From: a virus
Lineage: Duplodnaviria; Caudoviricetes
Virus record (IMG/VR): IMGVR_UViG_3300025082_000008
Coordinates: 1-59,582 of that record
Length of the DNA stretch: 59,582 bases
Strand: one strand, 5' to 3'
The notes under the pieces are model-generated. The model saw only the letters and a program-made list of their open reading frames with translations. It had not been told where the DNA came from and did not search any database. Position numbers and translations under genes: made by a program. Within the stretch, counting starts at the first letter, position 1, and the number at the start of each line of letters is the position of its first letter. Below are positions 707-37,279 of this stretch, piece after piece.

Positions 707-1753
707 ATGGCAGGGATACTTGACAAAAAGACGAGATTTATTGACTATGTAATCACACAAGAGGGCAAGCGACAGTTAGCGTCAGGGAAGATGCGCGCGA
801 TGTATGCTTCTGTTACAGATATGCACACATTCTATGACGTCAATGAGCATGATGATGTGAATAATAGAATATTCTTTCAGGTCATGGAACGCCCTGAGAA
901 TGTCATTGTCTTAGAGAAGGATGACAGCGGAAGCCTCATTGACTTTAATTTTTCACCGACAGGCAGCATAGTTGGTAACGATATATTTGATAAGGATGCA
1001 ACAGCTACAAACATCCTGAAGCTAACGGCTGTCACAGGATCAAAGTTTGCCAGCACAAGCGACCAGATCCTGCGGTCTTTCTTGACACACTTCAAGCGAA
1101 ACACTATGGTAGGCACTTACTTTTCTAACGGGTCCAATGACTTCAGATTAAATCGTAAGCGCTTAAACTTTTCAATTAGTAATTCTGTTCCGTTTGAGCA
1201 TGGACCTCAAGGTGAGACGATTAATGTCAATAATGCTGAGCCGTTCTTTTTTGATTCAAAGTTAACACACTTAAAAAACTTCATGTTCCTCCCGCCTGTC
1301 AACACAGACGGCTCACCATATGGTGTTCATAAAGACTTAAGAAGCACAAAAAAAGAGACGCTACGAATGATCAAACGTGAGTTAGGCGTAGGTGCATTTG
1401 ACTCTGACACACTTGAAGTAGAAGATAATTATCGTGCTAGAGTTGACAAAATGGGTGACTTCAGCGTCATAAATAGAAATAAGCTGAAGTCTGTCAACAC
1501 GAGCATGCCAAAAGAGTTCAAGACAGTTATTTTTAAGAAGACATCAAGAGATAATAATTTGTTAATACAGTTATTTGAAAACAGTAAAAATGCAAAACTT
1601 ACAAAGCTTGATATCATCGATGCCGGAGCATTCTATGATAGGAAGGCAACAAACGGAAGGAATGAGAAGCGAATTTTTTATGTAGGAAAGATATACTTTG
1701 ATGACTTTAAGGTTCCAACATTCATAAACATATTTACGTTAGTATTTGATTGA
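707..1753 (+). CDS. Putative virion structural (baseplate/tail-associated) protein
   Basis: 348 aa; N-terminus MAGILDKKTRFIDYVITQEGKRQLA resembles that of 11536..12231; lies in the structural cluster. Confidence 0.55.
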   Translation: MAGILDKKTRFIDYVITQEGKRQLASGKMRAMYASVTDMHTFYDVNEHDDVNNRIFFQVMERPENVIVLEKDDSGSLIDFNFSPTGSIVGNDIFDKDATATNILKLTAVTGSKFASTSDQILRSFLTHFKRNTMVGTYFSNGSNDFRLNRKRLNFSISNSVPFEHGPQGETINVNNAEPFFFDSKLTHLKNFMFLPPVNTDGSPYGVHKDLRSTKKETLRMIKRELGVGAFDSDTLEVEDNYRARVDKMGDFSVINRNKLKSVNTSMPKEFKTVIFKKTSRDNNLLIQLFENSKNAKLTKLDIIDAGAFYDRKATNGRNEKRIFYVGKIYFDDFKVPTFINIFTLVFD

Positions 1754-1761
1754 GTTAATAG

Positions 1762-4569: not shown

Positions 4570-4571
4570 AC

Positions 4572-7500: not shown

Positions 7501-9311
7501 AGAATGCTTCACATGATTTTTTTGCAACACTTCTTGACACAGAAAAATCTGCATTCATAGGCAGTGCATCAAATCATATCCGTAGTGGCAAAAAATTCCA
7601 GTGGCGATGGCGAACAACAGTGAGAAACTACGGACCAATATATAGTCTCGGCATGCATCAAAGAGCTTGGGTATGGTGGAACTGGTCTGCACAGTGTATA
7701 CAAAGATACACGACTGTTAGACTTTCGTCTAATAATCCTGGTGGTGCAAACAATGCGTATGTGAAAATTCATATGTATAAAGACCAGATTAACGCTATTG
7801 GGGATGCATTTTGGGATGTGGGTAATGGCGCAACTTCATACTCATTCCCTCCGCACCCGAATGCGTTATTTTCTCTTTGGTATGAGAACAGTTATAAGCA
7901 CGCGTATCACGCAGCAAGAGAGATAGTGAAAAAGGCTCAAATAAGAGAGCAACAAATTGTTGGACTGTGTTTAGCACTTATGACGCACGCAAAGAACTTA
8001 GGGCGATATCGAGATAAATTCATCAAGTATATAAAGACAGGTGATGGCACAAAAACAAAAGCACTTGCAATTAAAGCGCTGAGAGAAAACAAGATATACG
8101 GTAAGTCTGTCAAACTATTAACAAAAGAGAAGGTGAGTCAGATGTATGCAGACTATCTAACATCTTTTAAGTCTGTTAATGGCACACCACTATACTCTTA
8201 CGATGACACTTATAACTTGACTTCATTGAAGTTAATGTATAAGGTGCTCTCGCAGAGAGGCTATGGGCTATTAGAAGGCAGAGGAAAAGAGCTTAGAGGT
8301 AATAAGACTGTTCTTCATGTAGGTGTGACAAATTCAATGATAGCAACTATGAGACTTGATGCATACAAAGACACAGGAGACAGAAAGTATTTAAATTCGT
8401 CAAAGATTTGTATTAATGTCTATAAGAAAAATCAGTTAAACTCATATGAGCTATTGTATCCCAAAGCATATATTTTTGACATGTCAGCACACATACTAGA
8501 TATAGATCAAAATGGAGACCATTTATCTCATATATCAGACTTTCAAGAGACATGGAATCTATCTGATGTTATTAAAAACACATCAGTTACAAGATGGACA
8601 GATCAAGGTGATAATCCTGGATTAGAAACAGATGCGTATACAGATGACTTTAGGGCAGTTATTGGAAAGGGTATGACAGCAAAGGGGATAAATGATAAAG
8701 ATGTTTTTATTAATCATATGTTCGATTATTCATTTAAGCTGTATTATAGACTCACGCTAGGAATTGATATAAAGGAGCGCACGTATCTCCTAGGGAAGAA
8801 TATTATAGAGCATGATAACGTAACTGCAACAAGAAGTGTGGGACAAGCTGCATTGCAAGCGCAGTATGATTCACTGGAAGGTAAAGTTACTGAAATGTAT
8901 CCTGCTGCTAATCTTGATCCTCTACTATCATCAGAGATGTTCAGAGTTTTAAACGTCATAAAAGCATCAAGTCTTTATAGCGGCCTGAATAAGATAAAGA
9001 AAGTGTTTAATCCAAAAATGTTTGATAGAGTGTTTGCAGTACTAGTCAATGAAAAAGATTTCGTAGTTCATAAGGACTCGCTATCAAAGGATTGGCTAGA
9101 CATATATCAGAGCGAGCCTTCATTTGAGTATACATCGAAGCTCTATAGACCTGACGTAGTTGATGATTTTTCAGGAGATATCTCTTCATCGACTCAGGTT
9201 AATAACATTACAACTGTGACAAAGAAGTATAAAGCATCTTGTTTTAATAACTACCCAGAAGTGTATACTTATTATGTTAACATTTCACTGTTACCTGATG
9301 ACGCTTACTAA
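4572..9311 (+). CDS. Very large hypothetical protein with an internal hydrophobic hairpin
   Basis: 1579 aa ORF; about 50 uncharged residues encoded at ~7161-7320. Confidence 0.55.
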   Translation: MSIKPTNANFTLSASLNNLSKPVNLTLAGINLTDDSSSSLGSEGYDTMTNANAADRYEILYLSGLNPLKALLIANTEFVPIAVGAKNDDSSTINLNFGEEESISVTNCARLIELHRQIREYILNTATSLLSRSQDFNVNNFYKSLQYVLNTKPKSAGSSSKSKSRSKSPGGLSVSRSRVPNPNTAISIGSCIDASNPTMSGTVNNIIKKLQSTPHTAGKLSVSKTQSFKLNSLRAVATQHKNSPLLKSIVEYILYEKIILDAIEYLSGILRIKSDLEDNYSLSMMEMKGSSFDDLDIGFGGMQVDFDELSNTGMLGDRTGAASVATTVKGAGVIRNNMGLSFDSTASNIDEYFNLLTSLASKILLNDSATVLQSFKSNDKNTSMSGGQVIVQKEGDLREAMVRLSKIRFSAVVPSEERVTSLSSTQILSDENIEKIEGAISDDLVGTYAELLVAATFDSIYEMTGRCDVELKLPKVLPQGGSSRLNPSAKSATGKATIVSYLKYALGDMIPDSAASDKDIKSHTLSKKEYSAIRVPRGSRGTRANVTNLGVLGEFLSRIEKASDGLNYIPLESTIGKLNAKTGSTSFYTGPEAFIDRALQAGDIKFEEFSKFVDMYMDVTEAFAEDILKLTNCGYGHLTTNKNSKITPLGALSPSGCIESLLCSLGKDIKRGAETSKAIPGLAYTAMYSYGVENRRNCFQASLLGLLASGVWTGLGTATARLDTSATKDAAEENQNKVEAMANVLYFAHEARTEKLTINLLYAQAKVKKLQTMSRKYFMNDDEKYKVVITDDKHSWLTDKDKDLHKLGKSKYVIQREANKPDEFEEASALHALGDAGHFSFKIMKKSGDTDLADAFRMRDIDGSILATSIAIGLLAAVAIGSGGLAVFAAAWGVMLPVAIGAAVGAASAAVTIGVAKSIRSRDNLTQDQQESMAFQGPQLSRYAGAFNTFLMDEHLTNDPETSRATEYSRMSNSIGENASHDFFATLLDTEKSAFIGSASNHIRSGKKFQWRWRTTVRNYGPIYSLGMHQRAWVWWNWSAQCIQRYTTVRLSSNNPGGANNAYVKIHMYKDQINAIGDAFWDVGNGATSYSFPPHPNALFSLWYENSYKHAYHAAREIVKKAQIREQQIVGLCLALMTHAKNLGRYRDKFIKYIKTGDGTKTKALAIKALRENKIYGKSVKLLTKEKVSQMYADYLTSFKSVNGTPLYSYDDTYNLTSLKLMYKVLSQRGYGLLEGRGKELRGNKTVLHVGVTNSMIATMRLDAYKDTGDRKYLNSSKICINVYKKNQLNSYELLYPKAYIFDMSAHILDIDQNGDHLSHISDFQETWNLSDVIKNTSVTRWTDQGDNPGLETDAYTDDFRAVIGKGMTAKGINDKDVFINHMFDYSFKLYYRLTLGIDIKERTYLLGKNIIEHDNVTATRSVGQAALQAQYDSLEGKVTEMYPAANLDPLLSSEMFRVLNVIKASSLYSGLNKIKKVFNPKMFDRVFAVLVNEKDFVVHKDSLSKDWLDIYQSEPSFEYTSKLYRPDVVDDFSGDISSSTQVNNITTVTKKYKASCFNNYPEVYTYYVNISLLPDDAY

Positions 9312-9328
9312 CACAGGCAAGTAGCTAC

Positions 9329-11476
9329 ATGGCAATTACAAAAAATAAATCAACATCGTCGAAAGGACTTTCTAGCACTTTAAGCACAGCAGTTGTGTCA
9401 GGAAAAGCTCGCTCCGGTACCAACAAGTCTTCTGTTGTAGAGATTGAAAATCCACAATTTGATGTTCATGACATGATAGGTGTAACATCGGGCCGCGAAA
9501 GTTACGTATCTCTACCTGCTAACAGAATTAATATTCCTGAAGTTAGAAGAGCAAAGGCGGAGTTTGTTTATAATTACTTTGTTAAAGACGAGCGCGTAAA
9601 AAAGAGTACCGGTCTTTCGAAGGATAAAATTCTCGATCTTGGTGTTGACTTTAGTAATGAAATATTCTTCCAAATGTCAAATGATAGGATGCCACGATAC
9701 GTGAAATTATCGTTTAAACCTCCCAAGACATACGGAATTATTAAAAAGTCGACAGTATCTAAATTCATCGAGGACAACTTAGATAAAATAACTATTGAAG
9801 GTGCATCGTCAAATACTTATTTTACAGGAATAGAATTTATTGACACAGGCAAGGAAAAAGAAATATACTCACTTTTAAACTCAACAATGTTTTTTACAGA
9901 CATAGTCACAGCGGAAGGTTCTCCGCAAGATGCTGCTGAGGCGCTTTATGATACACTTGAAGAGAAAGGAGGTTTGTTCGGAAAAGACAAGCGATTACTC
10001 AAGGAGGGTCTTAGCAATATGCAATCATCAGGTTATGTTCTCGCAGCATCAGATGTTCCTCCAGAAATTGCAGAATTCTCAGACGACCCGTTGACAAAGC
10101 AAAACTTTTCAGTTCAATTTAATAATTTGACAATATCAGAGACAGTGAAAACCGCGACAAGAATACCTGACACAGTTTTTCAAGATGAGTTCAGAGCACT
10201 TGACTCGTTCTCAGAAGGCATAAAAACAAAAATGTTGAAAACTGTTAATCCGTCAAAGATATCTGACACACAGTATGAGATGACAGTTAAAGCAGTAGAA
10301 ATAAAGACACTTTCTGATAAGACACTTTACCCTAACAGAACAAGGAATGTAAGAAATTTTGGAGCAAGGAAGGGTCGAAAGAACTATGCTAATAGAAAAT
10401 CTTTGTATGATAAGTACCCACAAATAAAGCTAGCAGGTTATATAATACAAAAGTATGAAGTTGACACGGATGAATCGACAACATTCTTGGGTACAATGTA
10501 CTCAAATAATACTAACGGGCTGTACATAGTTGATAAGGATGTGCGATACGGTGGGAACTACATATACAAGATAAGAACAATTGCAGAAGTTGACACTATT
10601 GTGACAACATCAACAGCTTCAGCATCTCAGAATTCACTGTCTTCTTTTGCAATTGCAAAGATGTTAGTCGCATCAGAAGGCGCCACTGTTAGTGCTACTT
10701 GCACTGAGTATGTTCCGCCGCCGCCTCCGGAGAATCTAAGGATAGGCTTTAACTTTAGGAGAAAACTTCCTTTTCTTTCATGGCAGTTTCCTTTGAATGT
10801 TCAGCGTGATATAAAAAGATTTCAGATATTCAAAAGGAAAAATCTTAGAAAACCCTTTACACTGATAGCTGAGCTTGACTTTGACGATTCAGTTATTAGA
10901 GGCGGTGTTGCAGAGATTGCGCTGGAAGAAAATGTGCACAGAACTGATCAACCTCGAGTGAACTATCTAGACAAGACGTTTAATTTAGGAGACACACCTA
11001 TATACGCAATAGCAAGCGTCGATGCGCATGGGATGAGCTCAAATTACAGCGCACAAATTAGAATGAGATATAATAAGTACACTAATAAGTTAACAACAAA
11101 GGTCCTGAGCGGCCCAAATGCACCGAAACCGTATCCTAATCTATTGCTGAACGTTGATGCATTCGATGATGCTATAAAAGTTAGCGGGTACGAACGAATG
11201 AAAGTTTTCTTTGATCCTGAGTATTACAAAGTGTACAAGAATGAGAAAGGTCAACGAGGAGAACGAGGCAAGGTGGACCGCGTTAAAAAAGAGTTATCTG
11301 TCAATTTCTTAAGGGTCAATCCAAATGTGGATACATATAAAATTCACATCATGAATTTAGACTTACAAAAAGATAGGATAGTCGGTGTCAGGATAGCTGA
11401 CTTCAGCGGCGCGCCTATAGGTGTCTCCCCGGCGAGCTTCTCTACGACAAACTTAAGTTTTGAGTTTGGAACATAA
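9329..11476 (+). CDS. Hypothetical virion protein with FN3-like domain
   Basis: 715 aa; PPPPENL...LSWQFP...IKRFQIFKR...YLDK...YAIASVDAHG is an FN3-type pattern. Confidence 0.55.
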   Translation: MAITKNKSTSSKGLSSTLSTAVVSGKARSGTNKSSVVEIENPQFDVHDMIGVTSGRESYVSLPANRINIPEVRRAKAEFVYNYFVKDERVKKSTGLSKDKILDLGVDFSNEIFFQMSNDRMPRYVKLSFKPPKTYGIIKKSTVSKFIEDNLDKITIEGASSNTYFTGIEFIDTGKEKEIYSLLNSTMFFTDIVTAEGSPQDAAEALYDTLEEKGGLFGKDKRLLKEGLSNMQSSGYVLAASDVPPEIAEFSDDPLTKQNFSVQFNNLTISETVKTATRIPDTVFQDEFRALDSFSEGIKTKMLKTVNPSKISDTQYEMTVKAVEIKTLSDKTLYPNRTRNVRNFGARKGRKNYANRKSLYDKYPQIKLAGYIIQKYEVDTDESTTFLGTMYSNNTNGLYIVDKDVRYGGNYIYKIRTIAEVDTIVTTSTASASQNSLSSFAIAKMLVASEGATVSATCTEYVPPPPPENLRIGFNFRRKLPFLSWQFPLNVQRDIKRFQIFKRKNLRKPFTLIAELDFDDSVIRGGVAEIALEENVHRTDQPRVNYLDKTFNLGDTPIYAIASVDAHGMSSNYSAQIRMRYNKYTNKLTTKVLSGPNAPKPYPNLLLNVDAFDDAIKVSGYERMKVFFDPEYYKVYKNEKGQRGERGKVDRVKKELSVNFLRVNPNVDTYKIHIMNLDLQKDRIVGVRIADFSGAPIGVSPASFSTTNLSFEFGT

Positions 11477-11535
11477 AAAGTTTACTTTAATTCGTCGTAA
11501 ATATATATTTATAAGCAGAAAGTGAGGAATAACAA

Positions 11536-12231
11536 ATGGGATTTTTAGATCATTCAACAAACAATATCATCGTTGATGCTGTTTTAACAGATTTAGGACG
11601 TCAAGCGTTAGCAAAAAATGACGGTTCTTTTAACGTGTATCAGTTTGGGTTAGGTGATGATGAGTGTGACTATAATGTGATCCAGCAGTTCGGAAGAACT
11701 GTGGGCAAAGAAAAGATAGAAAAGAACACACCCATAATAGAAGCACTGACAGCTGGAAGCGTAGCGCTTAGACATAAGTTACTCAGTGTTTCAAATGAAT
11801 TCTTGACGCACCTGCCTGTTCTAGAATTCGCTGATACATCAACGATCGCGCTGTCTAGAGGCGGAAATGTCACAACTAGCACGCTGACAGCGACTATCAG
11901 TTCAAAGACAGGTGTGGGCATAGATCAGGATCTTATAGACGGAGAGTTCAGGGTGGAAGTTAATCACATGTTTTTGGGTCTCACAGGTGAGGCTCCTGAT
12001 ATCGTCCATACAGATAACATCGCTATCTATAGGTACCCAGCTGGATTCGGTGACACAGCAGACACAGTTTCAGCAAGCATTCAGTTATTTTTAAAATCAT
12101 TTTCAGACACAACTTTTGATACCTTTTCTACTTCTGGTGGGACATACATTAGAACATTCGTCAAAGTGACAGGTATTAACTCAGGACTTACACAGAACAT
12201 AGAAGTTCAGATCGAAAAGGGAAGCAGCTAG
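11536..12231 (+). CDS. Putative virion structural (baseplate/tail-collar-like) protein
   Basis: 231 aa; VDAVLTDLGRQALA...FNVYQFGLGDD; SD GAGGA upstream; N-terminus paralogous to 707..1753. Confidence 0.6.
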   Translation: MGFLDHSTNNIIVDAVLTDLGRQALAKNDGSFNVYQFGLGDDECDYNVIQQFGRTVGKEKIEKNTPIIEALTAGSVALRHKLLSVSNEFLTHLPVLEFADTSTIALSRGGNVTTSTLTATISSKTGVGIDQDLIDGEFRVEVNHMFLGLTGEAPDIVHTDNIAIYRYPAGFGDTADTVSASIQLFLKSFSDTTFDTFSTSGGTYIRTFVKVTGINSGLTQNIEVQIEKGSS

Positions 12232-12247
12232 GAGGCCAATCTAATAA

Positions 12248-13567
12248 ATGAGTACTTATAAAACAATATCAAGCGCAGACATAAAGACAACGCGGTCAAA
12301 CTTAAATCAGCTTGTTGACTTCGTTGAAGAGGATGTGTCTGGGTCTACAACAAGAAAACGTTACCAGGTTTTCATAACAGGCTCTGGCGCAAATTCTATC
12401 ACATCATCACTGTTTCATACAGTGTATGATCAGGATTATACACTCCAGACAGCAAATGAGCTATTTGACATGACAGTGGGTGTATACTCAGGATCGCGCA
12501 CTGTCTCCACTGCTAGCTCAGGGATGGACGTGAACGGCAAGCTTCTCTTCACAGGAAGCCAGCCGATGATGAGGGAGAAGGTCAATATATACAGACAGTT
12601 TTCCCAGCTATTGCTCGGAGATGCGTCACAGAGATTCACGTCACCGTTCTCAAATGCTACAACAACAGTAGAGAACATCGACAATGCACTGTTCCTCACG
12701 TTCAAGCGACTTTTTGTCAGAGACGGTATCAAGCGCGAGACTTTCGCGATGCGGATATACCAGAGCTCATCGAGGGCAAGCCCCTCCACCGGTACTACAG
12801 ATGCTGACACAGCTGGTGAGGGTGGATCAGGACCGGCACAGAACATAGCAGTAACATCAGTCCATCCAGCCAGTGGCTCAGTAATTATAACAGACGTAGG
12901 TGCTGCATCTAGCATTGAACGTTCTCAATTTGGAGGCGACGTAGGGAATCTTGTTCTTGCGTCTAATACATCACATAATGTTGGTTTGATATTCTACCAG
13001 CACGGCATACTAATACTTGACATGGAAAGAGCCTTAGACGGAGACCAGATCATGTCAGGTTCAATCTCTGCAGTCGGTGCACCCGGGAAGGTAGCTTCTT
13101 ACGACGGTGTAACCGCGGATACAAGAGTGGAACACCCAGCAGGAACCACTATTGGTGGTGGTGCTCTGTCAGGTATGGCCCACGTTTCAGCGTCATTTGT
13201 TCCTCACTTTGTGGCGTCTGCCTCTATTGACACACTGCTTGATCACATAGCAACCACGCGGTTCTCAAGTGGCTCGCAGACTTTCCTGACATTCCAGAAT
13301 AACACACAGATAAATTCAACATTGATTTTCTGTAGAGCGACAGCTGATGAATTTAATTACTCGTCTAACCCAACGTACACTGACACTGAGGGAAGAATTG
13401 TTGTCATTGACGAGTCTCAACAGGGCGTGCAAAAATCGTTCGCCTTTGTTTCAACAATTGGACTTTACGACGCTAATGAGCAACTCCTCGCAGTCGCGAA
13501 ACTTTCAAGGCCAGTCGAAAAGAATGATGAGAAGGATTTGACTTTTAGAGTTAGGCTTGATTTCTAA
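12248..13567 (+). CDS. Putative virion structural protein
   Basis: 439 aa; C-terminus IGLYDANEQLLAVAKLSRPVEK...FRVRLDF, paralogous to the C-terminus of the next gene; SD AGGAGG. Confidence 0.6.
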   Translation: MSTYKTISSADIKTTRSNLNQLVDFVEEDVSGSTTRKRYQVFITGSGANSITSSLFHTVYDQDYTLQTANELFDMTVGVYSGSRTVSTASSGMDVNGKLLFTGSQPMMREKVNIYRQFSQLLLGDASQRFTSPFSNATTTVENIDNALFLTFKRLFVRDGIKRETFAMRIYQSSSRASPSTGTTDADTAGEGGSGPAQNIAVTSVHPASGSVIITDVGAASSIERSQFGGDVGNLVLASNTSHNVGLIFYQHGILILDMERALDGDQIMSGSISAVGAPGKVASYDGVTADTRVEHPAGTTIGGGALSGMAHVSASFVPHFVASASIDTLLDHIATTRFSSGSQTFLTFQNNTQINSTLIFCRATADEFNYSSNPTYTDTEGRIVVIDESQQGVQKSFAFVSTIGLYDANEQLLAVAKLSRPVEKNDEKDLTFRVRLDF

Positions 13568-13582
13568 CACTAAGAGGCAGAC

Positions 13583-15979
13583 ATGTCATTTGTCAAATTA
13601 GACAGGCAGAATTTTGAACTAACATCAATCCTTCTTAAGCCAACTGTACACTTTGTGTCATCTTCAAAAGACCCGGGTGGTGTTGTTACTGGATCGCAGT
13701 ATGTTTCATCTGTTAGATCAAAGTGTATTAAGCAGGTTATTGATCTAGCAGCTGCTACGAATAATCTCGAGGAGGATATTGAAGATGATGTGTCATCAGT
13801 ATCTCAGTACAATATTGACAGTTACACAAGAGCAGTTGCTCTATATACAGCACAAACAAAAGCAGCAACAAGCGGTACAACTGATTTAACTGGATCTTTA
13901 GAGTTGTACATGTCTGGCGTCTATGTCGCACCGAAAGATGTAAGATTCGAAAAGACAATTGATGTTTTCAGATTTGATCCACCGTTTAAGTACACAAATA
14001 ACACAACTGTTAAGAACGTAGTTAGAAATGTCTTAATGCCGTATAATCGGCACAGATATGAAAACTGTGGTTTTTGGTACTCTAATTATAATACTCTTAA
14101 TTTTTTCGATAATGACATAGTGCCATCAGGATCTTGCCTAATATATCCAAACTATACAAGATCGCTTGATCTACCTGACACGTTTTCTTTGAATTTCTGG
14201 ATAAATCCGAGGTACTCAAGAGCTGATAGAGCATATAAAGCTGGAACGATATTCCACATGTCCTCTTCAATTGCTGTGTCACTTGTTTCTGGGTCTAGCA
14301 TAAATGTGTACGGTGAGGAAGATGAGTTCAAGCTACTCCTTCAGCTTAGCCACAGTGCTGACATACCTCCATCATCAATCGATCTAGCAGCACCTAACAG
14401 TGCATTCCCGGGAGATTTAGTTTTTACATCGTCATTTGTTCTTAAAAAGAATCACTGGCATCATGTTGCAATCATGTGGGGCGCGAACACAAATAATCAA
14501 AGCGGTTCCATGTGGATCGATGAAAATGAAACAATCTTTCACGTGCCATCAAGCTCATTAAGCTCATCATACCAACCAGACGGGCTAGTTATTGGAAATT
14601 ACTACGATGGAAATGCAGATGACTTGTCAGCATTATTCGGCACGCACGTAGAAGCAGAGGGTGTGAGAGTAATGGGCCCAGATGATTCCGCAGATCCTTC
14701 AATAGGCCCAAACATGTTCGCGCATCCATTGAATGCAGAAATTCATGACATAAGACTCTATAATCAGTTCAGAGATAAGGCAGTCACATCATATCAAAAC
14801 CCGGGCGCGGTGGGCCCAGAGACAACTGAGAACTTAGTTCTTTGGATACCTCCGTACTTTTACCCAACGACGCCTACGAGAAGTGTGCTAGTCACACCTT
14901 TTCAGACGATAGATGACAGTACAACAAATGATCCGTTCAACGTCCAGTTTTCATTCGGTGTGGGCGGAAAGATGATCAATCTTGAGAATTTTGTTAGAGA
15001 TTTTGTGACAGGTGAGTATCCAAGGCTTTTAGAGTTAGTTCCAAAGACAATAGACACAACAATAGAGGACATAACAGCAGACCAGTATGTCTATGAAGCA
15101 GGCACAAATCCTATATTTTCAGGTGTGGTGATACCTACTGGGTCTCACATAAAGAGAAATATGACAATTCTCCCTTGTGACAATGGCCTACATAGTCCTA
15201 GATACACAATACTTTCTAGCTCTGCAATGTCAGCAAGCGCGATGTATCAGAAGTCTTGTAATGGTGTTCCTGATTACTCTATTATAAATTTGGACTATCT
15301 AATTCCAACAGCTTCTTTATTCCCTGGCCTGATTTTTGCAACTGGGTCTATCTTCTCTGACATCTGTGGTACTGCTCCTGATAACCCTGGTGTTGCACCA
15401 GGCTCAGTTCTTACAATAGCACAGAGGACAAGAGACGTAAGCTCAAATGAAATTGTTGTCTTTGATATATCGAATCTTTATTACGGAAATAAGATAAACC
15501 CAGGAAGTCTTGAGATGTATGATGAGCATCTAACAGGCTCTCAGGGAGATGTAAAGATAAAGTTAAGAGATAACGGAAGGGGTAGCATTTATAGAGCAGA
15601 TTCTGTCACAAAGCATGCGACATGGAATAATTTAGGAAATGTGTTATATGAAGACGGCATCGTTGTTTTAAAGACGCCTCACCTGCTCTACTTCAACAAG
15701 GATAAGACAAATATAAAATTTAAGGGTGAACAGAACATTCATACAATGATAGTGAACGTTCCCTGTCATGAGTGGAATTTCACTTCATCTTCAAATAAGA
15801 CCTATAAGGAAATAACACCGACTGCCGGCGCAAATGACTCGACTCTCAAAGCTGTTTATTTAACAGGCGTGAATATTCACGATAATAATTTCAATGTGAT
15901 CATGCGAGCAAGCTTCTCCCAACCGATTGTTAAAACTCAAGAAGATGAGTTTGTTATTCGTTTAAAGCAGGATTTCTAA
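13583..15979 (+). CDS. Putative virion protein with LamG/ConA-like lectin domain
   Basis: 798 aa; FSLNFWINP...WHHVAIMW...LVIGNY...EIHDIRLYN is the LamG-like pattern; C-terminus paralogous to 12248..13567. Confidence 0.65.
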   Translation: MSFVKLDRQNFELTSILLKPTVHFVSSSKDPGGVVTGSQYVSSVRSKCIKQVIDLAAATNNLEEDIEDDVSSVSQYNIDSYTRAVALYTAQTKAATSGTTDLTGSLELYMSGVYVAPKDVRFEKTIDVFRFDPPFKYTNNTTVKNVVRNVLMPYNRHRYENCGFWYSNYNTLNFFDNDIVPSGSCLIYPNYTRSLDLPDTFSLNFWINPRYSRADRAYKAGTIFHMSSSIAVSLVSGSSINVYGEEDEFKLLLQLSHSADIPPSSIDLAAPNSAFPGDLVFTSSFVLKKNHWHHVAIMWGANTNNQSGSMWIDENETIFHVPSSSLSSSYQPDGLVIGNYYDGNADDLSALFGTHVEAEGVRVMGPDDSADPSIGPNMFAHPLNAEIHDIRLYNQFRDKAVTSYQNPGAVGPETTENLVLWIPPYFYPTTPTRSVLVTPFQTIDDSTTNDPFNVQFSFGVGGKMINLENFVRDFVTGEYPRLLELVPKTIDTTIEDITADQYVYEAGTNPIFSGVVIPTGSHIKRNMTILPCDNGLHSPRYTILSSSAMSASAMYQKSCNGVPDYSIINLDYLIPTASLFPGLIFATGSIFSDICGTAPDNPGVAPGSVLTIAQRTRDVSSNEIVVFDISNLYYGNKINPGSLEMYDEHLTGSQGDVKIKLRDNGRGSIYRADSVTKHATWNNLGNVLYEDGIVVLKTPHLLYFNKDKTNIKFKGEQNIHTMIVNVPCHEWNFTSSSNKTYKEITPTAGANDSTLKAVYLTGVNIHDNNFNVIMRASFSQPIVKTQEDEFVIRLKQDF

Positions 15980-16531
15980 TTGATACTAGCACTTGACATA
16001 TCCACTAGTTGCACAGGTTTCTGCGTCTTCAGTTATGAAGGCACACTTGTTAATAGCGGCGCGATTAGACTTGATAGGGAAAAAGACTTTTTTATGAAAG
16101 TTCGGATGGTCGAGAGAATAATTCGAAAGCTAACAGTAGAGTATGGCTTAAAAGTTGTCGTTATTGAGGAATCATTACAATCATTTCGTCCAGGATTTTC
16201 ATCTGCTAAGACCCTGTTTACGCTATCAAAGTTCAATGGGATAATTCAGTACATATGCTATAACTTAGATATGGAAGTTTTCACACTAAATGTAAACACT
16301 GCTCGTAAGCTTGCTTCAATTAAAATTGACAGAAAGAGCAATGTGTCAACAAAGGAGCAAGTTGTTCAGCAGGTCTCGCAGAACAATGAATTGAGGCTTG
16401 ATTTACCCAAGAAGATACTTAAGAGCGGCCCAAGAAAGGGTCAAGAAGTGTATGAGAATGCTGCGTATGACATTGCAGACGCTTATGTGATAGGTAAGGC
16501 ATATTGCGTTGAAAATCACACAGAATGTTAA
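15980..16531 (+). CDS. RuvC-like Holliday junction resolvase
   Basis: ILALDISTSCTG, VVIEE, and DIADA near the C-terminus give the RNase H-fold acidic residues; TTG start directly after the upstream stop. Confidence 0.8.
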   Translation: MILALDISTSCTGFCVFSYEGTLVNSGAIRLDREKDFFMKVRMVERIIRKLTVEYGLKVVVIEESLQSFRPGFSSAKTLFTLSKFNGIIQYICYNLDMEVFTLNVNTARKLASIKIDRKSNVSTKEQVVQQVSQNNELRLDLPKKILKSGPRKGQEVYENAAYDIADAYVIGKAYCVENHTEC

Positions 16532-16537
16532 TATAAT
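16509..16537 (+). promoter_or_regulatory. Sigma70-type promoter of the primase gene
   Basis: TTGAAA (16509-14), 17 nt, TATAAT (16532-37). Confidence 0.6.
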
Positions 16538-16543
16538 CGTTCT

Positions 16544-17500
16544 ATGAGTGTTATCACTGAAAAGCAAAAGATAGAGCTTATAAGGTCTGCTTTTGGTGAA
16601 GGTATAGTTTCAAAAGACTATAAGAATATATCAGTGTCGTGCCCTATATGCGGAAAAACTAAGTCTGTTCACAAAAAAAAGTTATCTGTTTGTCTAGATA
16701 CGGGAATGTATCACTGCTGGGTTTGTGAAGCTAAAGGCAGGAATATTGCTAATCTAGCAAAAAGGACTGGAACATTTCAGAACACTTTAGATAGCTTATA
16801 TGTAATATTTGGTTACCCAAAAGGCGAAGAGCAGGAAATAGTTGAAATATTGAGTCTTCCGTCTGACTTTAAGCTTCTTTGTTTGAATAACAGCAAGGCG
16901 GCAAAGATTGCTAAACATTATCTTAGTTCTCGAGGTTTTGACGAGAAAGACATAACAAGCTACAAGGTAGGGACAAGCAATGAAGATCAATATAATAATA
17001 GGATTATATTCCCGTCATTTAACGATCGACTCGAGCTGAATTTTTTTCTATCAAGGACGTATGACTCAAGACAGAATATTCCTTACAGGAATTGCAAGTT
17101 TAGTAAAAAAGATATTATTTTTAATGAGAATTTTATTGATTGGAACAATACGCTTGTTTTAGTTGAAGGTGTCTTTGATTCTGTAAGAGTTCATGGAAAT
17201 GTAGCATGTATGCTAGGAAGCTGGATCGATGAGACACACTTGCTCTTTAATAAGATAGTGATAAACAAAACACCCGTTATTCTAGCGCTAGACCCAGATG
17301 CCAAGGAGAAGGAACAAAAAATTGCTCAAAAATTATCTGAGTACTGTGTTGATGTTAAGATTGCTAGCAATAAGCTTAAAGACTTTGGGGATATGACACA
17401 TGAAGAAGCACAAAGTTTTATTAACAGTGCTAAACATTTTGATGTTACTGATAGAATAAGATATTTAATAGGTGGAATAAAATCTGGTTCCGTCTATTAA
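16544..17500 (+). CDS. DnaG-type DNA primase (Zn finger plus TOPRIM)
   Basis: CPIC...YHCWVC zinc-binding domain; RIIFP; LVEGVFD and LALDPD TOPRIM motifs. Confidence 0.88.
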   Translation: MSVITEKQKIELIRSAFGEGIVSKDYKNISVSCPICGKTKSVHKKKLSVCLDTGMYHCWVCEAKGRNIANLAKRTGTFQNTLDSLYVIFGYPKGEEQEIVEILSLPSDFKLLCLNNSKAAKIAKHYLSSRGFDEKDITSYKVGTSNEDQYNNRIIFPSFNDRLELNFFLSRTYDSRQNIPYRNCKFSKKDIIFNENFIDWNNTLVLVEGVFDSVRVHGNVACMLGSWIDETHLLFNKIVINKTPVILALDPDAKEKEQKIAQKLSEYCVDVKIASNKLKDFGDMTHEEAQSFINSAKHFDVTDRIRYLIGGIKSGSVY

Positions 17501-17509
17501 GGTGTAAAT

Positions 17510-17827
17510 ATGAAAAAATTAAGTCGTGCTAGTCTTAGAAAGCTAATTAGAAATGAAGTTCGGAGCATCGTCGATGAAGATGCTCTTCTTTCATCACCTG
17601 ATATAGGCGAGCCTTATTACGTTCCGAGAGATGAGATGGAGTATGATGATCATGACCACAGCCTCAGCGCGCAACCGTGCTCTGCGTGTGGAGATTATCA
17701 TGATGACTCACCCTGCGCAACAGAGCAGGATCCATTTTTAGACACACTTGGCGCAAGATCTGACCTCTATGAACTTTCTGATGTCTACAACAGAACAGGC
17801 AGAAGAAAACGAAATGATAGATCTTGA
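17510..17827 (+). CDS. Small hypothetical protein with N-terminal LRKLIRNE helix and Cys/His cluster
   Basis: 105 aa; MKKLSRASLRKLIRNEV; HDH...CSACGDYHDDSPC; stop abuts the next ATG. Confidence 0.6.
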   Translation: MKKLSRASLRKLIRNEVRSIVDEDALLSSPDIGEPYYVPRDEMEYDDHDHSLSAQPCSACGDYHDDSPCATEQDPFLDTLGARSDLYELSDVYNRTGRRKRNDRS

Positions 17828-19135
17828 ATGCCTTCGCTACAAACTTTATTTGCAGAAACGTCTGACTATAACATAGATAGTAAGCATTTAAAAAAAGTTT
17901 CTAAAGTTTGTAGTCGTCTTGGCAGCGCAGAAAACTTACTACCTTCAATGAGTTATCCGTCAGTTAATTCTGCAGCATTTGATAATGATTTGGATGAAGT
18001 GGTGAGATGTATTAAACACCCACATATGGATAATAGATTTATAAAATGTTCTGATGGCTCAGTTGAAGAAACATTTAAATCGTTTTTAGAAAGAGAGCAT
18101 AATGACTTCATAGACTGGAGTGAAATATCAAAACTATTAGAAGAGGTTGATACAATAGTTTTGAGGCTAAAATACGAGTATAAAAGACCCAGGCCCAAAT
18201 GTTTTTTAATAGATGTCAGTGACAGATATAGAACAATAAAAGATTCGAAATCACCCTCTTTTCCTAGTGGTCATACAGCAATTGCATATTTTTTATCCGG
18301 AATACTATCTAAACTCATTCCAGAGCTTACAGGTGATCTTTTGACATTATCTGAGATGGTAGGACAGTCAAGAATTGAAAATGGTGTACATTTTCCTTCT
18401 GATATTTTGTATGGGAGGCTAGTGGGCGAAATGTTATCTGACAGCTACAATAATGAAGAAAGACGCATAATAGATGGGTTAAAAAGAAATCACTATCGTG
18501 AGTGTAGTCAAAATTTGAGAGATGTTGCAGAAAAGATACGTCCAAGTCACTTGAAGGTAGATGCTTTGGATAGCTACGCAAGGGACCTGGCACAATATAT
18601 TTTTAGAACTAATCAGATAGAGCGATATTCTTTGGACTTCGATGATTGCAATCAATCTGCTCGGGAATTTTTAATGGGTTATCCATCAGACTATGTAACT
18701 GATGATAAACACATAAGCTCAACACTTGACGGAATTGTGTATACAAATCTACTTGAGACTATTGATAGTCCACAAAAAATTATACAGACACACAGGGCGT
18801 TTCATCCCGACGTCATAGAAAGACAAGCCCCCGGTTCTTTACGAGACTTTTCACATGCTTCTCCGTCAGGTACAGCTTACTCAGAACCTCAGGATATTCT
18901 TCATTGTTTGAAACAGTGTTGTAAGATCAAAGATCAACCTGTGCTAAAGCATATTGTCTATGAATGGGTGCACCCATTTTGTGATGGTAACGGTCGTTCT
19001 GGAAGGTTAATTCTAGCGTCAGACTTAGGTTATAACTTTGATATTGCTAACCAGGTTATTGATGACAACTACATTCCAATGTTAAGAGAGTTCATGGAAA
19101 ATACAGATATGAACGATTTAGTAAATAGCTTATGA
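17828..19135 (+). CDS. PAP2 (acid phosphatase/haloperoxidase-type) domain fused to a Fic domain
   Basis: PAP2 motifs KYEYKRPRP, PSFPSGH and SRIENGVHFPSD; Fic motif HPFCDGNGRSGR at 18971-19006. Confidence 0.85.
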   Translation: MPSLQTLFAETSDYNIDSKHLKKVSKVCSRLGSAENLLPSMSYPSVNSAAFDNDLDEVVRCIKHPHMDNRFIKCSDGSVEETFKSFLEREHNDFIDWSEISKLLEEVDTIVLRLKYEYKRPRPKCFLIDVSDRYRTIKDSKSPSFPSGHTAIAYFLSGILSKLIPELTGDLLTLSEMVGQSRIENGVHFPSDILYGRLVGEMLSDSYNNEERRIIDGLKRNHYRECSQNLRDVAEKIRPSHLKVDALDSYARDLAQYIFRTNQIERYSLDFDDCNQSAREFLMGYPSDYVTDDKHISSTLDGIVYTNLLETIDSPQKIIQTHRAFHPDVIERQAPGSLRDFSHASPSGTAYSEPQDILHCLKQCCKIKDQPVLKHIVYEWVHPFCDGNGRSGRLILASDLGYNFDIANQVIDDNYIPMLREFMENTDMNDLVNSL

Positions 19136-19144
19136 TTGATTTTC

Positions 19145-19173
19145 GTGTAACTTTTCATTTTTTGTTTTATAAT
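19145..19173 (+). promoter_or_regulatory. Putative early/middle promoter (GTGYAA-N17-TATAAT class)
   Basis: GTGTAA 19145-50, 17 nt, TATAAT 19168-73; same architecture at four other sites. Confidence 0.65.
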
Positions 19174-19209
19174 ATTATCAAGAAATGAGTTTAATAAGCG
19201 GAGAGGGCA

Positions 19210-19644
19210 ATGATTCCAAAGCTGACACAATCACAGATCAAAATGATCAAAGAAGAGCTTCAAAAGAATGTTGAAGAATTCGACGCAGAAGAAGACCTTG
19301 ATACTGTTGACTTAGCAGCTGTTAAAAAGCGTTATTCGTATGAGTTAAACGACGACGGAACGATGCATTCAGATGAGAAAACAATCAATAGGCAGATCAA
19401 GCGAAAGATGCTTCGAGAAGCCAGAAATACGAAGAAAGTATCTGTTGCGTGGAATTTAGAGGCAGGTGATACTGTCCAATTTAAGAAGAACGGAACAATT
19501 GTATACGGGATGATCGTAAAGCAGTCAGCAGATGGAAGTTACAGAAACGTATCAGAAGCAAAGTATAGAGGGAAAGTTCTCGTTATGTGTGCTTCTGGCA
19601 ATATCTGGATGAATCCAAATAAGCTTGAAAAGCTTGATGACTAA
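19210..19644 (+). CDS. Hypothetical protein, possible C-terminal SH3/KOW-like barrel
   Basis: 144 aa; LEAGDTVQF...YGMIVK...VLVM...IWMNPNKLEKL; SD GGAG. Confidence 0.6.
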   Translation: MIPKLTQSQIKMIKEELQKNVEEFDAEEDLDTVDLAAVKKRYSYELNDDGTMHSDEKTINRQIKRKMLREARNTKKVSVAWNLEAGDTVQFKKNGTIVYGMIVKQSADGSYRNVSEAKYRGKVLVMCASGNIWMNPNKLEKLDD

Positions 19645-19650
19645 GAACTC

Positions 19651-19679
19651 GTGCAATATTAAGAAAAACAATTTATAAT
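19651..19679 (+). promoter_or_regulatory. Putative early/middle promoter
   Basis: GTGCAA 19651-56, 17 nt, TATAAT 19674-79. Confidence 0.65.
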
Positions 19680-19709
19680 ATAGAAGAACAAATCATTAAA
19701 GGATAAAAA

Positions 19710-20762
19710 ATGAATATCAAAACCTTCGTTCAAGTTATTTCGGCTCTCCCACCCCATATCGCAGTGTTGGCAAAGGGACCAACTGGAATCGGTAAGTCAG
19801 ACATCTTTAAGGCTGTTGGAAATAATCTTTCCATGCCTGTTATCGACCGTCGACTGTCTCAGATGACAGAGGGCGATATCATCGGGCTCCCTGAGCTCAC
19901 TGACGGCATCACACGATTTGCGCCAGTGGACTGGTTTGTCCGGGCTTGCAATGAGCCGGTCGTTCTGTTCTTTGATGAGCTCAACAGAGCTACAATTGAG
20001 GTTCAGCAATGCGCGTTCCAGATCGTTCTTGATAGAGAGTTGAACGGGCACAAGTTGCATCCTGAGACTCGGGTCTATACTGCGATCAATGAAGGTAGTG
20101 AGTACCAAGTCACAGACATGGATCCTGCCTTGCTTCGTCGTTTCTTTGTAGCCACTCTAGAGCCTACGACTGAGGACTGGCTCGTCTGGGCGGAAGGTGC
20201 GGGCGTTGATGATGTCATCACTTCGTTCATTAAGAAATATCCCACACATCTCCGACATGACGGTGAGTTGCAGCCAGGAAAGGTGTATCCAAACCCGGCT
20301 TCGTGGGATCGCTTGGGTCAATCCCTTTGTTTCGCGAACATGGCACCCTCTGATTTGATTGGAGGAGAGGTACCTGACATTCTTTTCTCGATGTGCACGG
20401 GATTCATCGGCACAGAGACTGCTGTGGCATTTACTGATTACGTTAGAAATTACGAGATCAAGTTCTGTGCTGAGGATGTTCTTAACAACTGGAAGTCTAA
20501 GAAGTCTGGAATTAACAAGCTCACGAACGACAAGAAGAACGATCTTCTTAGTCAGATTGTGACATTCAGCAAGGATGTAGAGCTTACGCTAACTCAGGCA
20601 AAAAATGCATGCGCATTCGCAGCAACTTGCTCTGATGAGATCCTCGTTAATTTTATGAACTCAGTGATGGAGACCAAGAATATTCCTAACATCAGGAAGG
20701 TCCACAAGCACATCGCTCAGAGGGTTGTTGAGATCGTGAATGCTGCTCAAGCTATGAAGTAA
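19710..20762 (+). CDS. MoxR-like AAA+ ATPase
   Basis: Walker A GPTGIGKS, Walker B VLFFDELNRA, sensor TAIN, arginine finger DPALLRRF. Confidence 0.88.
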   Translation: MNIKTFVQVISALPPHIAVLAKGPTGIGKSDIFKAVGNNLSMPVIDRRLSQMTEGDIIGLPELTDGITRFAPVDWFVRACNEPVVLFFDELNRATIEVQQCAFQIVLDRELNGHKLHPETRVYTAINEGSEYQVTDMDPALLRRFFVATLEPTTEDWLVWAEGAGVDDVITSFIKKYPTHLRHDGELQPGKVYPNPASWDRLGQSLCFANMAPSDLIGGEVPDILFSMCTGFIGTETAVAFTDYVRNYEIKFCAEDVLNNWKSKKSGINKLTNDKKNDLLSQIVTFSKDVELTLTQAKNACAFAATCSDEILVNFMNSVMETKNIPNIRKVHKHIAQRVVEIVNAAQAMK

Positions 20763-20765
20763 TTC

Positions 20766-20794
20766 GTGCAATTAATATAAATATGTTGTATGAT
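20766..20794 (+). promoter_or_regulatory. Putative early/middle promoter
   Basis: GTGCAA 20766-71, 17 nt, TATGAT 20789-94. Confidence 0.6.
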
Positions 20795-20816
20795 ATAGGC
20801 AACAAGAGGATATAAC

Positions 20817-22106
20817 ATGACTCCCCAAGCACAAATTAGCGAAGATATCGCTACATGCACTCCGACTCTCACAGAAGCGAGGTTCAGTAAGATCTTGATT
20901 AAGTTCTTGCTCAATGAACCTTTCTTTTCTTCTATTGTCAGGAATCTCAGAAAGGAAAAGACATATAGCATTCCAACTGCAGGTGTGACATTTATTGATG
21001 GGTCAATGTCGTTGTACTGGAATCCAGATTTTATCTCTAGTCTTAACACAAGAAAGACGTTTGGTCTGCTTAAGCATGAGTGTTATCACCTTATTTTTAG
21101 ACATCTGACGTCAAGAAAGCAAGATCCTCATCTTTTTTGGAACATTGCAACTGATCTTGCGATTAATAGCACAATTCCTGAAGATGAGTTGCCAGACGGT
21201 GGTCTGGTTCCAGGAAAGCCTCTTGAGATCAAGTCAGACTCACCGCTTCCAGACGATGTCAGAGAGCAGGCAGAAAAGATGTCAGCTTTTATTGAGTCAT
21301 TGCCACGGAATCGTGCATCTGAGTGGTACATGGAACGACTCATGGAAAATCCTGAGATTCAAGAAGCGTGCAAGACAGTTTTTGAACCGGGCGAACCGGG
21401 TGAAGGCTCAGCTGCAGGATTCGACTTTCACTTTGATGATGACATGTCTGACGGCGAGCGTGAGATGATTGATGCTCGAGTAAAGAAGATCGTTGGTGAA
21501 GCTGTTGAAAGAGCAGATAGAACTAATTCGTGGGGCTCTGCACCAAGTGAGATGAGGTCAAAGATTCGATCAATGCTCGATGACACTGTTGACTGGAAGA
21601 AGGTCTTGCATTACTTCTGCGGAACTAAGCAGAGAGCAAATAAGTCACGTACATTCAAGAGAATTAATAGAAAGTATCCTTACATTCATCCTGGTCGCAA
21701 GATTAAGCACACGTCAAATCTTGCAATTTACATCGATCAGAGCGGTAGCTGCTCTGACGACGACATCGCTATGTTCTTTGGTGCTCTGTCTGATTTCTCA
21801 AAGGAAGTCAAGTTCACAGTTTACCACTTTGACACTAGTGTTGATGAGAAAAGTAAGCATGTCTGGAGAAAGCGTCAACCGCACCGAGATCCCTATAGAA
21901 CGAGAAGCGGTGGGACTTGTTTCGATTCTGTCGAGACACACTTCAGAACAACACGTGGCGAATACGATGGATACATCATTATGACTGATGGTGCTGCTCC
22001 TAAACCAAAAAATTGTATTTCTAAGAGATGTTGGGTAGTATTACCAGGACAACAGCTTCATTTTGCACCTGAAAAGAGGGACACAGTAGTGACGATGAAG
22101 TGTTAA
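20817..22106 (+). CDS. HExxH metallopeptidase-like plus vWA domain protein (DUF2201-like), MoxR partner
   Basis: HECYH, WNIATDLAIN, MIDAS DQSGS, GGTCF and MTDG; adjacent to the MoxR ATPase. Confidence 0.85.
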   Translation: MTPQAQISEDIATCTPTLTEARFSKILIKFLLNEPFFSSIVRNLRKEKTYSIPTAGVTFIDGSMSLYWNPDFISSLNTRKTFGLLKHECYHLIFRHLTSRKQDPHLFWNIATDLAINSTIPEDELPDGGLVPGKPLEIKSDSPLPDDVREQAEKMSAFIESLPRNRASEWYMERLMENPEIQEACKTVFEPGEPGEGSAAGFDFHFDDDMSDGEREMIDARVKKIVGEAVERADRTNSWGSAPSEMRSKIRSMLDDTVDWKKVLHYFCGTKQRANKSRTFKRINRKYPYIHPGRKIKHTSNLAIYIDQSGSCSDDDIAMFFGALSDFSKEVKFTVYHFDTSVDEKSKHVWRKRQPHRDPYRTRSGGTCFDSVETHFRTTRGEYDGYIIMTDGAAPKPKNCISKRCWVVLPGQQLHFAPEKRDTVVTMKC

Positions 22107-30390: not shown

Positions 30391-30996
30391 ATGAGTAGCC
30401 TTACAGTTTTAAGAGAGTGGACACCAATATCTTGCTCAAAAAAGATGCTAAAAGAGTCAAAAGAAAAATATGGTAAAGTAATGTTAAGCGGCATTATTCA
30501 AAGAGCAAATACGTTAAATCAAAACGGAAGAATCTATCCTAAGTCAATTCTAGAAAGAGAGATAATGAATTATCAGAAGCTGATTAAGGAAAATCGCGCG
30601 CTAGGCGAGTGTGATCATCCAGACTCATCTGTTGTTGAGCTAAAAAATGTTTCTCATATTGTTAGAGAAGCACGCATGGAAGGTGATGATGTTTACGGGA
30701 CTATTGAAATATTAGATACACCAAGCGGAAAGATAATACAGAGCTTGATTGAAAGTGAAATAACACTAGGGATCAGCTCAAGAGGTGTGGGTTCAACAAC
30801 ATCAAAAGGAGATTCTCAAGTTGTTCAAGATGATTTTCAGTTAATTTGTTTTGATATGGTAAGTGAGCCCAGCACTCCTGGCGCGTACATGCTTCGCGAG
30901 GGAAAGACAATCCAGAGAAAAGAGTTAGACAAATTTTTTAACAGATCAGACAAAATTGATAGAATTTTTAATGAAATATTAAGCTGGGATAAGTGA
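30391..30996 (+). CDS. Prohead core protease (T4 gp21-like)
   Basis: NQNGRIYP, ALGECDHP, VSH, GISSRGVGS, FDMVSEPSTPGA. Confidence 0.92.
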   Translation: MSSLTVLREWTPISCSKKMLKESKEKYGKVMLSGIIQRANTLNQNGRIYPKSILEREIMNYQKLIKENRALGECDHPDSSVVELKNVSHIVREARMEGDDVYGTIEILDTPSGKIIQSLIESEITLGISSRGVGSTTSKGDSQVVQDDFQLICFDMVSEPSTPGAYMLREGKTIQRKELDKFFNRSDKIDRIFNEILSWDK

Positions 30997-37233: not shown

Positions 37234-37262
37234 GTGTACAACTCGTAGGCGCTGTGTATACT
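37234..37262 (+). promoter_or_regulatory. Putative early/middle promoter of dUTPase
   Basis: GTGTAC 37234-39, 17 nt, TATACT 37257-62. Confidence 0.55.
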
Positions 37263-37279
37263 TGAATTATGGCATTGCT

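Follow-up and report, generated by a model that had tools for sequence, protein, structure and literature searches.

Phosphatases of the PAP2 superfamily hydrolyze phosphomonoesters or pyrophosphates via a phospho-histidine, and in Fic enzymes a histidine activates a hydroxyl group, which then attacks the alpha-phosphate of adenosine triphosphate (ATP). Each kind of enzyme has been studied in depth, though neither in phages nor in combination. The closest described relatives of the protein reported here are the class A acid phosphatases (PhoN, PhoC, and EB-NSAP) on the one side and the class II Fic proteins (CdFic 4x2e, FICD/HYPE, and SoFic) on the other. The viral record IMGVR_UViG_3300025082_000008 (positions 1 to 59,582; this whole stretch of 59,582 nucleotides (nt) is hereafter called the window) contains a single open reading frame (ORF) of 435 amino acids (aa), PAP2-Fic, in which the two are joined. 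A Pfam search with the window protein found both a PAP2 and a Fic domain above the gathering cut-offs. PAP2-Fic is an undescribed architecture made from two known enzyme kinds, one that databases already label automatically.

PAP2-Fic shares with the class A acid phosphatases the same three signature motifs and matches them by profile and fold, but it is viral, lacks a signal peptide, is fused to a Fic domain, and is probably cytoplasmic or virion-borne. With class II Fic proteins it has in common the HPFxDGNGRxxR motif and a [ST]NxIE helix in the same chain, whereas it lacks TPR or HTH partners, carries a phosphatase at the N-terminus, occurs only in viruses, and has an arginine as the final residue of the helix motif. 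The comparison with the T4 internal proteins and Alt is based on a short N-terminal peptide ending in glutamate and on the T4-type terminase, portal, protease, and major head protein of the window; however, the PAP2-Fic gene lies outside the head module, and its chemistry would be that of Fic and PAP2 instead of ADP-ribosylation. RNA end-healing enzymes (T4 and bacterial Pnkp and the "Swiss army knife" HAD-CCA proteins) follow a shared logic, with a phosphatase and a nucleotidyl transferase in each chain (PMC7824862), but their folds are unrelated to those of PAP2-Fic, which has no adjoining kinase or ligase gene.

No description of a PAP2-Fic fusion was found in the literature on AMPylation and Fic proteins, phage Fic proteins, acid phosphatases, polyvalent proteins, and RNA repair. 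Neither was a paper found that names both domains, and none of the top-ranked AMPylation/Fic papers mentions PAP2. Phosphatase goes unmentioned in the main text of a Fic survey (PMC4454073), as does PAP2 in PMC5512222 and PMC7824862. The initial annotation of the window, made from the letters alone, had not recognized the fusion as a described architecture, and the literature searched agrees. One ESM Atlas cluster carries the automatic name "Fic/DOC family/PAP2 superfamily domain-containing protein", and in this sense the architecture is already labelled in databases. The interest of the protein lies in two active sites carried by one rigid body, at a fixed genomic position, in abundant uncultured marine phages, and the identity of its substrate would reveal a new host-takeover mark or a new counter-defense route.

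A PAP2 domain and a Fic domain in one protein

The initial annotation had described one 435-aa ORF starting with MPSLQTLFAE and bearing all three PAP2 motifs and a complete Fic motif, and each of these was found where it had been placed (Table 1). Sequence and model show both active sites to be intact and strongly constrained, and the catalytic residues occur in 41/41 sequences of an alignment of PAP2-Fic homologues with 35-74% identity. The exception among the motif positions is S181 of the third PAP2 motif, which varies (S in 33, T in 7, and A in 1); given the invariance of the catalytic positions, the motifs are not chance occurrences. The single fused gene is likewise borne out by a domain-architecture search, in which 110 of the 120 listed homologues bear both Pfam families according to precomputed annotation (the other 10 have PAP2 only, at a query cover of 79-100%), and by structure prediction. 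An AlphaFold2 model built from the family alignment places both domains in one confident body (mean predicted local distance difference test (pLDDT) 92.5, predicted template modeling score (pTM) 0.88), and the only weak region is residues 1-20 (pLDDT 55 and 73, with 55 for residues 1-10). A split gene with the two halves as separate ORFs was rejected, since it was found in none of the 69 loci L011-L079 and five related records gave one match each.

The protein has no hydrophobic segment (the top 19-residue Kyte-Doolittle mean is 1.14, at residue 151) and is therefore predicted to be soluble and not secreted, unlike the class A phosphatases. The isoelectric point (pI) of the window protein is 5.35, and the family median is 6.7.

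In the N half, the match to the acid phosphatase fold covers approximately residues 20-210. A hidden Markov model profile of the family matched PhoN and EB-NSAP chains at E ~1e-15, and Foldseek matched the N half to P. aeruginosa, PhoN, PhoC, and EB-NSAP structures with a probability of 1.0, a template modeling score by target of 0.57-0.68 over ~190 columns, and an identity of 22-27% to the solved acid phosphatase structures. The nearest structures are phosphatases. PAP2-Fic falls outside the class A acid phosphatases proper on two counts, as it has no signal peptide and scores 32.7 bits against the cut-off of 430 for the NCBIfam PhoC equivalog NF045654. The vanadium haloperoxidase-type family PF22778 gave no match in the window protein at E ≤ 0.01 in Pfam, and a precomputed PF22778 label stands next to PF01569 in 16 of the 120 listed homologues. 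Homologues are named in their sources "acid phosphatase (class A)", COG0671, K09474, or hypothetical. By homology, the N half would be a PAP2 histidine phosphatase closest to the periplasmic class A acid phosphatases, lacking their signal peptide, with His188 as the nucleophile and His149 as the acid.

The family profile also matched more than 30 Fic structures, including M. marinum Fic, FICD, Coxiella Fic2, CdFic, SoFic, and NmFic, and the FICD matches span the region from the helix through the Fic motif. Within this motif, H382, P383, F384, D386, G387, N388, G389, R390, G392, and R393 are each conserved in 41/41 homologues. TNQIER had been likened in the initial annotation to the inhibitory helix of class II Fic proteins, and this likeness holds in part: E265 is present in 41/41 homologues, position 261 is T or S in 41/41, and a profile of the C halves aligns [ST]NxIE residue for residue with SNKIEG of CdFic 4x2e, the motif that acts as the inhibitor in this class II Fic protein. 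It fails at the last position, which is G or N in only 15/41 homologues and R in the window. The inhibitory-type helix sits 117 residues N-terminal to the Fic motif in the same chain. The C half is predicted to be a class II Fic nucleotidyl (adenosine monophosphate, AMP) transferase with His382 as the catalytic base, and the protein's own helix would put Glu265 at the position of the class II inhibitory glutamate. Isoprenoid diphosphates are classic PAP2 substrates. They are also competitive inhibitors of FICD (10.64898/2025.12.08.693056). The glutamate of class II Fic proteins holds AMPylation in check, and in FICD and bacterial relatives it also contributes to deAMPylation (10.1101/323253, PMC12007993).

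Table 1. Positions of PAP2-Fic, its motifs, and other features in the window
Feature	Position	Strand	Remarks
PAP2-Fic gene	17828..19135	+	single ORF, 435 aa
Decapeptide MPSLQTLFAE	17828..17857	+	family pattern M-x-S/T-I/L-x-x-L-F-x-E; candidate targeting or cleavage peptide
PAP2 core PF01569	18164..18433	+	Pfam residues 113-202, 60.1 bits (cut-off 27.2), E 2.3e-16
PAP2 motif 1, K115-x6-R122-P123	18170..18196	+	K115, R122, and P123 each 41/41
PAP2 motif 2, PSGH = P146-S147-G148-H149	18263..18274	+	P146-H149 41/41
PAP2 motif 3, S181-R182-x5-H188-x3-D192	18368..18403	+	R182, H188, and D192 41/41
TNQIER, candidate class II-type inhibitory helix motif	18608..18625	+	residues 261-266; E265 invariant
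Fic core PF02661	18782..19015	+	Pfam residues 319-396, 29.6 bits (cut-off 24), E 1.3e-6
Fic motif HPFCDGNGRSGR, H382-PFCDGNGRSG-R393	18971..19006	+	matches HxFx(D/E)GNGRxxR
RuvC-like resolvase	15980..16531	+	conserved upstream neighbor
Best sigma-70-like site of the region, TTGAAA-17-TATAAT	16509..16537	+	11/12, consensus match only; just 5' of primase
Primase	16544..17500	+	conserved upstream neighbor
ATATTTAA	17461..17468	+	inside primase ORF 16544-17500; chance frequency
Upstream acidic ORF, 105 aa	17510..17827	+	shortened member of Cys-rich family; no gap to PAP2-Fic
MoxR-like AAA_5 ATPase, then DUF2201_N metallopeptidase-like and VWA protein	19710-22106		
Head maturation protease, T4-type prohead protease	30391..30996	+	phrog_207, E 3.6e-53

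A virus-restricted family and its partner domains

PAP2-Fic is not a one-off but a virus-restricted family of more than 200 sequences. A word-indexed search returned 205 relatives, and an exhaustive profile search of 1.84 billion representatives found 94 proteins at E ≤ 1e-30, of which ~26 are full-length fusions (at 50% clustering) and the remainder are fragments, stand-alone halves, and other fusions. The ESM Atlas clusters with PAP2 and Fic, of 54 and 156 members, are 100% viral, and the family is seen in marine metagenomes (Tara labels). In a GTDB scan of prokaryotes with one genome per species (185,579 species), the best 80 of 114 relatives held no more than weak, partial, Fic-only matches, on which ground a cellular origin was rejected. 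For cultured phages, a tblastn search of INPHARED produced one weak partial match, and BFVD held no full-length match to PAP2-Fic. A viral scan with the single protein sequence gave no match, and a second viral scan with the Fic half as the query added no new close loci.

The halves are also found apart from each other. Among loci L011-L079, the Fic half alone (inhibitory helix included) occurs in 4 and the PAP2 half alone in 39, and the 53 long non-fusion relatives comprise 45 with PAP2 and 8 with Fic. Of these eight, P0178 carries a PolyA_pol/CCA-type domain with its RNA-binding domain, P0234 and P0238 carry 2H phosphoesterase domains, P0248 carries an ATP-dependent ligase domain, P0173 carries LRV/HEAT repeats, and three have no other domain. 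In locus L011, a stand-alone Fic half is followed 2 nt on by a gene encoding HAD_SAK_1 and PolyA_pol domains; this HAD_SAK_1 and CCA/PolyA_pol-type gene (L011:7272-9982) is itself interrupted midway through its PolyA_pol head domain, where a GIY-YIG/NUMOD homing endonuclease gene lies. On the PAP2 side, P0182 has NUDIX and P-loop kinase-like domains, and P0216 (843 aa) is a portal protein with a C-terminal PAP2 domain of the same viral subfamily, a fusion that suggests a capsid-internal phosphatase. HD_4 was matched by one of the 53 long relatives. In Atlas clusters, viral PAP2 is paired with NTP_transf_2 (31% of members) and CTP_transf_like (81%). The known parts of phage RNA repair are ligases, kinases, 2H phosphoesterases, linear phosphatases, and CCA-adding enzymes (PMC7824862). 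The partners of the relatives (CCA-adding, 2H, HAD, ligase, and NUDIX) suggest that Fic chemistry may be linked to the repair of RNA or nucleotides, and those of the Fic half (CCA-adding, 2H, HAD, and ligase) may point, by inference only, to counter-defense of the RNA-repair type.

Proposed mechanism and alternatives

The analysis establishes the architecture, conservation, fold, virus restriction, and synteny of PAP2-Fic; its two activities, its substrate, and its timing are matters of inference. Our preferred, though tentative, reading is that PAP2-Fic may be a counter-defense enzyme of the RNA-repair type, for a translation or transfer RNA (tRNA) apparatus under host attack. It would most likely be a phage-side effector in the infected cell that acts on phosphate- or nucleotide-bearing ends, where the PAP2 site would strip a terminal phosphate or pyrophosphate and the Fic site would add AMP to a hydroxyl or, via Glu265, take AMP off, on the same substrate or in the same pathway. 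The direct substrate could be an RNA end or a protein. Several observations weigh against this reading. To our knowledge, every characterized Fic enzyme targets a protein and none RNA. The partner evidence comes from few proteins (4/8 long Fic-half relatives and 1/4 loci), and among the long relatives 3 of the 8 with Fic and the majority of the 45 with PAP2 are without an informative partner. Such fusions may also be polyvalent proteins with independent modules (PMC5512222). The conserved neighbors are RuvC, primase, and an SbcC-like protein, of replication and recombination, together with the MoxR/VWA pair, and not a ligase or kinase, and the acidity of the window protein is atypical for a nucleic-acid binder.

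A host-takeover enzyme or toxin, though itself an unlikely reading, is nearly as likely as RNA-repair counter-defense. The Fic domain would AMPylate a host protein unrelated to RNA repair, such as a topoisomerase subunit or a translation factor, in the manner of bacterial Fic and Doc toxins, and the PAP2 domain would be accessory, hydrolyzing either the pyrophosphate that is released or, on the target, a competing phosphate. This is consistent with the invariance of the canonical AMPylation-competent motif, with the position of the gene within a replication and recombination array, and with reports of Fic toxins that AMPylate GyrB and ParE (PMC7479194, PMC13327609), but it leaves unexplained both the recurrence of CCA-adding, 2H, HAD, and ligase partners of the Fic half and the invariant, rigidly packed PAP2 half. 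The intact state of both sites and their packing into one confident body (pTM 0.88) would also suit a writer and eraser in one chain, an idea of the initial annotation, in which Fic adds AMP or phosphocholine and PAP2 removes the mark via a phospho-histidine-type intermediate, a scheme that is plausible but that we consider improbable. PAP2-superfamily enzymes can also carry out transfer from phosphodiesters, and a deAMPylase with a phosphatase fold is known. However, class II Fic proteins can erase their own mark via the conserved glutamate (10.1101/323253, PMC12007993), which would make a second eraser superfluous, and other phages carry one half without the other (4 Fic-only and 39 PAP2-only loci, as given above). 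It is less probable still that the gene is an auxiliary metabolic gene for phosphate scavenging in low-phosphate sea water, with an acid phosphatase freeing phosphate for phage DNA synthesis and Fic as its regulator. The source names of the homologues ("acid phosphatase (class A)", COG0671, and K09474) and their presence in marine metagenomes would agree with this, but the lack of a signal peptide or membrane segment indicates that PAP2-Fic is not located where class A enzymes scavenge, the score against the PhoC equivalog is far below its cut-off, and the invariant Fic site is left unexplained.

Another alternative is about delivery and could be combined with any of these chemistries. PAP2-Fic may be, as the initial annotation proposed, a packaged and injected effector, in which the Glu-ending decapeptide at its N-terminus would target the prohead, the T4-type protease would cut, and the enzyme would enter the next cell with the DNA in the way of T4 Alt and the internal proteins; the support is circumstantial, and on balance we regard this as unlikely. 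The decapeptide is poorly ordered in the model (pLDDT 55) and conserved, with L7 and F8 each in 39/39 sequences and E10 in 26/39. In a six-frame scan of the window and 79 viral loci (2.2 million residues), its pattern occurred 8 times, 7 of them at PAP2-Fic starts. The eighth match is the start of a 989-aa LRV-Fic protein (L012:6120-9089, P0173; LRV/HEAT repeats and Fic), whose gene lies in the head module of the related phage L012, between the head protease and the scaffold/major capsid protein homologues. The pattern was found internally once in the 113,470 residues of 279 proteins. Portable and tied to two different N-terminal domains, the decapeptide fits a targeting or cleavage signal and is a candidate packaging signal beyond the T-even phages. 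The T4 prohead protease cleaves after L/I-x-E, and a prohead protease gene is present in the window. Further points in favor of delivery are the PAP2 relative fused to a portal protein (P0216), the interpretation of portal and MuF fusions as packaged effectors (PMC5512222), and the capsid-targeting sequence concept reviewed for T4 internal proteins (PMC3012670). On the other hand, the PAP2-Fic gene is packed with RuvC and primase, away from the head genes, and no late-promoter signal was found in the window. PAP2-Fic is the only ORF in the window to begin with the decapeptide, and a degenerate pattern in five related records (766 kb) found one further imperfect ORF start against two control matches, which is not above chance. 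As the decapeptide tracks the Fic half, it could alternatively be a regulatory peptide related to Fic; in stand-alone Fic halves it is absent. Sites of the form [LIVM]F.E number 10 against 11.7 expected overall, and the 4 that lie in head-module ORFs are a post hoc and weak observation. It is very unlikely that delivery and repair are combined, with PAP2-Fic packaged in the capsid, injected, and reversing host attacks on the 3' ends of tRNA or RNA in two steps; PAP2 would clear a 3'-phosphate or pyrophosphate left or placed by defense toxins, and Fic would restore or remove a terminal AMP. If true, a Fic domain would for the first time act on nucleic acid, and a PAP2 enzyme would for the first time take part in RNA repair. 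Separately, a 364-aa ORF in locus L160 (G006:C1:6597 onward) starts with a near-match to the decapeptide (Arg at position 3) and has no homologue in the window.

Genomic neighborhood and source phage

PAP2-Fic is a syntenic core gene of its myovirus lineage. The order RuvC, primase, variable ORF, and PAP2-Fic occurs in 10/10 viral contigs with the full-length fusion; in L002 and L009, RuvC and primase are separated by one or two additional ORFs. In the window, the intergenic gaps from RuvC through primase and the 105-aa ORF to PAP2-Fic are 12, 9, and 0 nt. A MoxR-like ATPase and a VWA protein are encoded 3' of PAP2-Fic in 8/10 loci; L007 and L010 are without this pair and have an SbcC-like gene directly next.

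The initial annotation had regarded PAP2-Fic and the ORF before it as a two-gene unit, which holds as conserved synteny. The upstream ORF of the relatives (L001:7420-7998 and its equivalents in L002-L010) is always immediately 5' of PAP2-Fic and encodes an acidic protein of 182-248 aa (pI 4.4-5.1) in which an N-terminal helix and a C-terminal block of ~60 residues are conserved and several CxxC pairs occur. The 105-aa copy of the window keeps the N-terminus and three cysteines and has lost most other conserved parts, a decay that argues against an obligatory, antitoxin-like partner. The upstream family has no match in Pfam, PHROG, or NCBIfam, and the Atlas gave weak leads only. An exact (S/T)xxxE(G/N) motif is absent from the 105-aa translation. 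A class I Fic toxin with a separate antitoxin was rejected, because the helix is within the Fic protein itself and the upstream ORF is shortened and without the motif.

The motif ATATTTAA, which the initial annotation had taken as a late-type motif ahead of this unit, is indeed present at 17461, but it lies inside the primase ORF and its frequency is at chance level, with 6 matches in the window against 4.05 expected and 6 reached in 28/100 shuffles. For the T4 late box TATAAATA, 3.08 occurrences are expected and 2 were counted, and with both motifs at chance frequency in the window a late promoter was rejected. Counts of sigma-70-like and terminator-like sites in 15500-21000 equal those of shuffles.

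The window covers part of the genome of an uncultured marine myovirus that is distant from T4 and probably a jumbo phage. Among its products are two sheath-like proteins and a terminase, portal, head protease, and major head protein of the T4 type. The terminase shares 41-43% identity with that of Microcystis phage Mel-JY01 and that of Flavobacterium phage immuto, and 32% with those of T4-like cyanophages. For related records, which span 93-237 kb, CheckV gives completeness values of 34-77%, which would correspond to genomes of roughly 200-300 kb.

Several other genes of the window have unusual features. The two sheath-like proteins are adjacent large paralogues (43400-46558, 1052 aa, and 46599-49985, 1128 aa) whose similarity to tail sheath profiles is confined to the C-terminal 350-440 residues and which both carry long N-terminal extensions. 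For the major head protein (34541-36457, 638 aa), the best match, phrog_138, covers residues 367-621, which leaves a long N-terminal part without explanation. At 707-13567, six ORFs in a row, of 231-1579 aa, lack a PHROG match (E ≤ 0.001); five have conserved counterparts in related viral loci, and the largest (1579 aa) is unmatched in the stretches compared. A dUTPase gene (37262-37738) is located within the structural block, between the head and connector genes.

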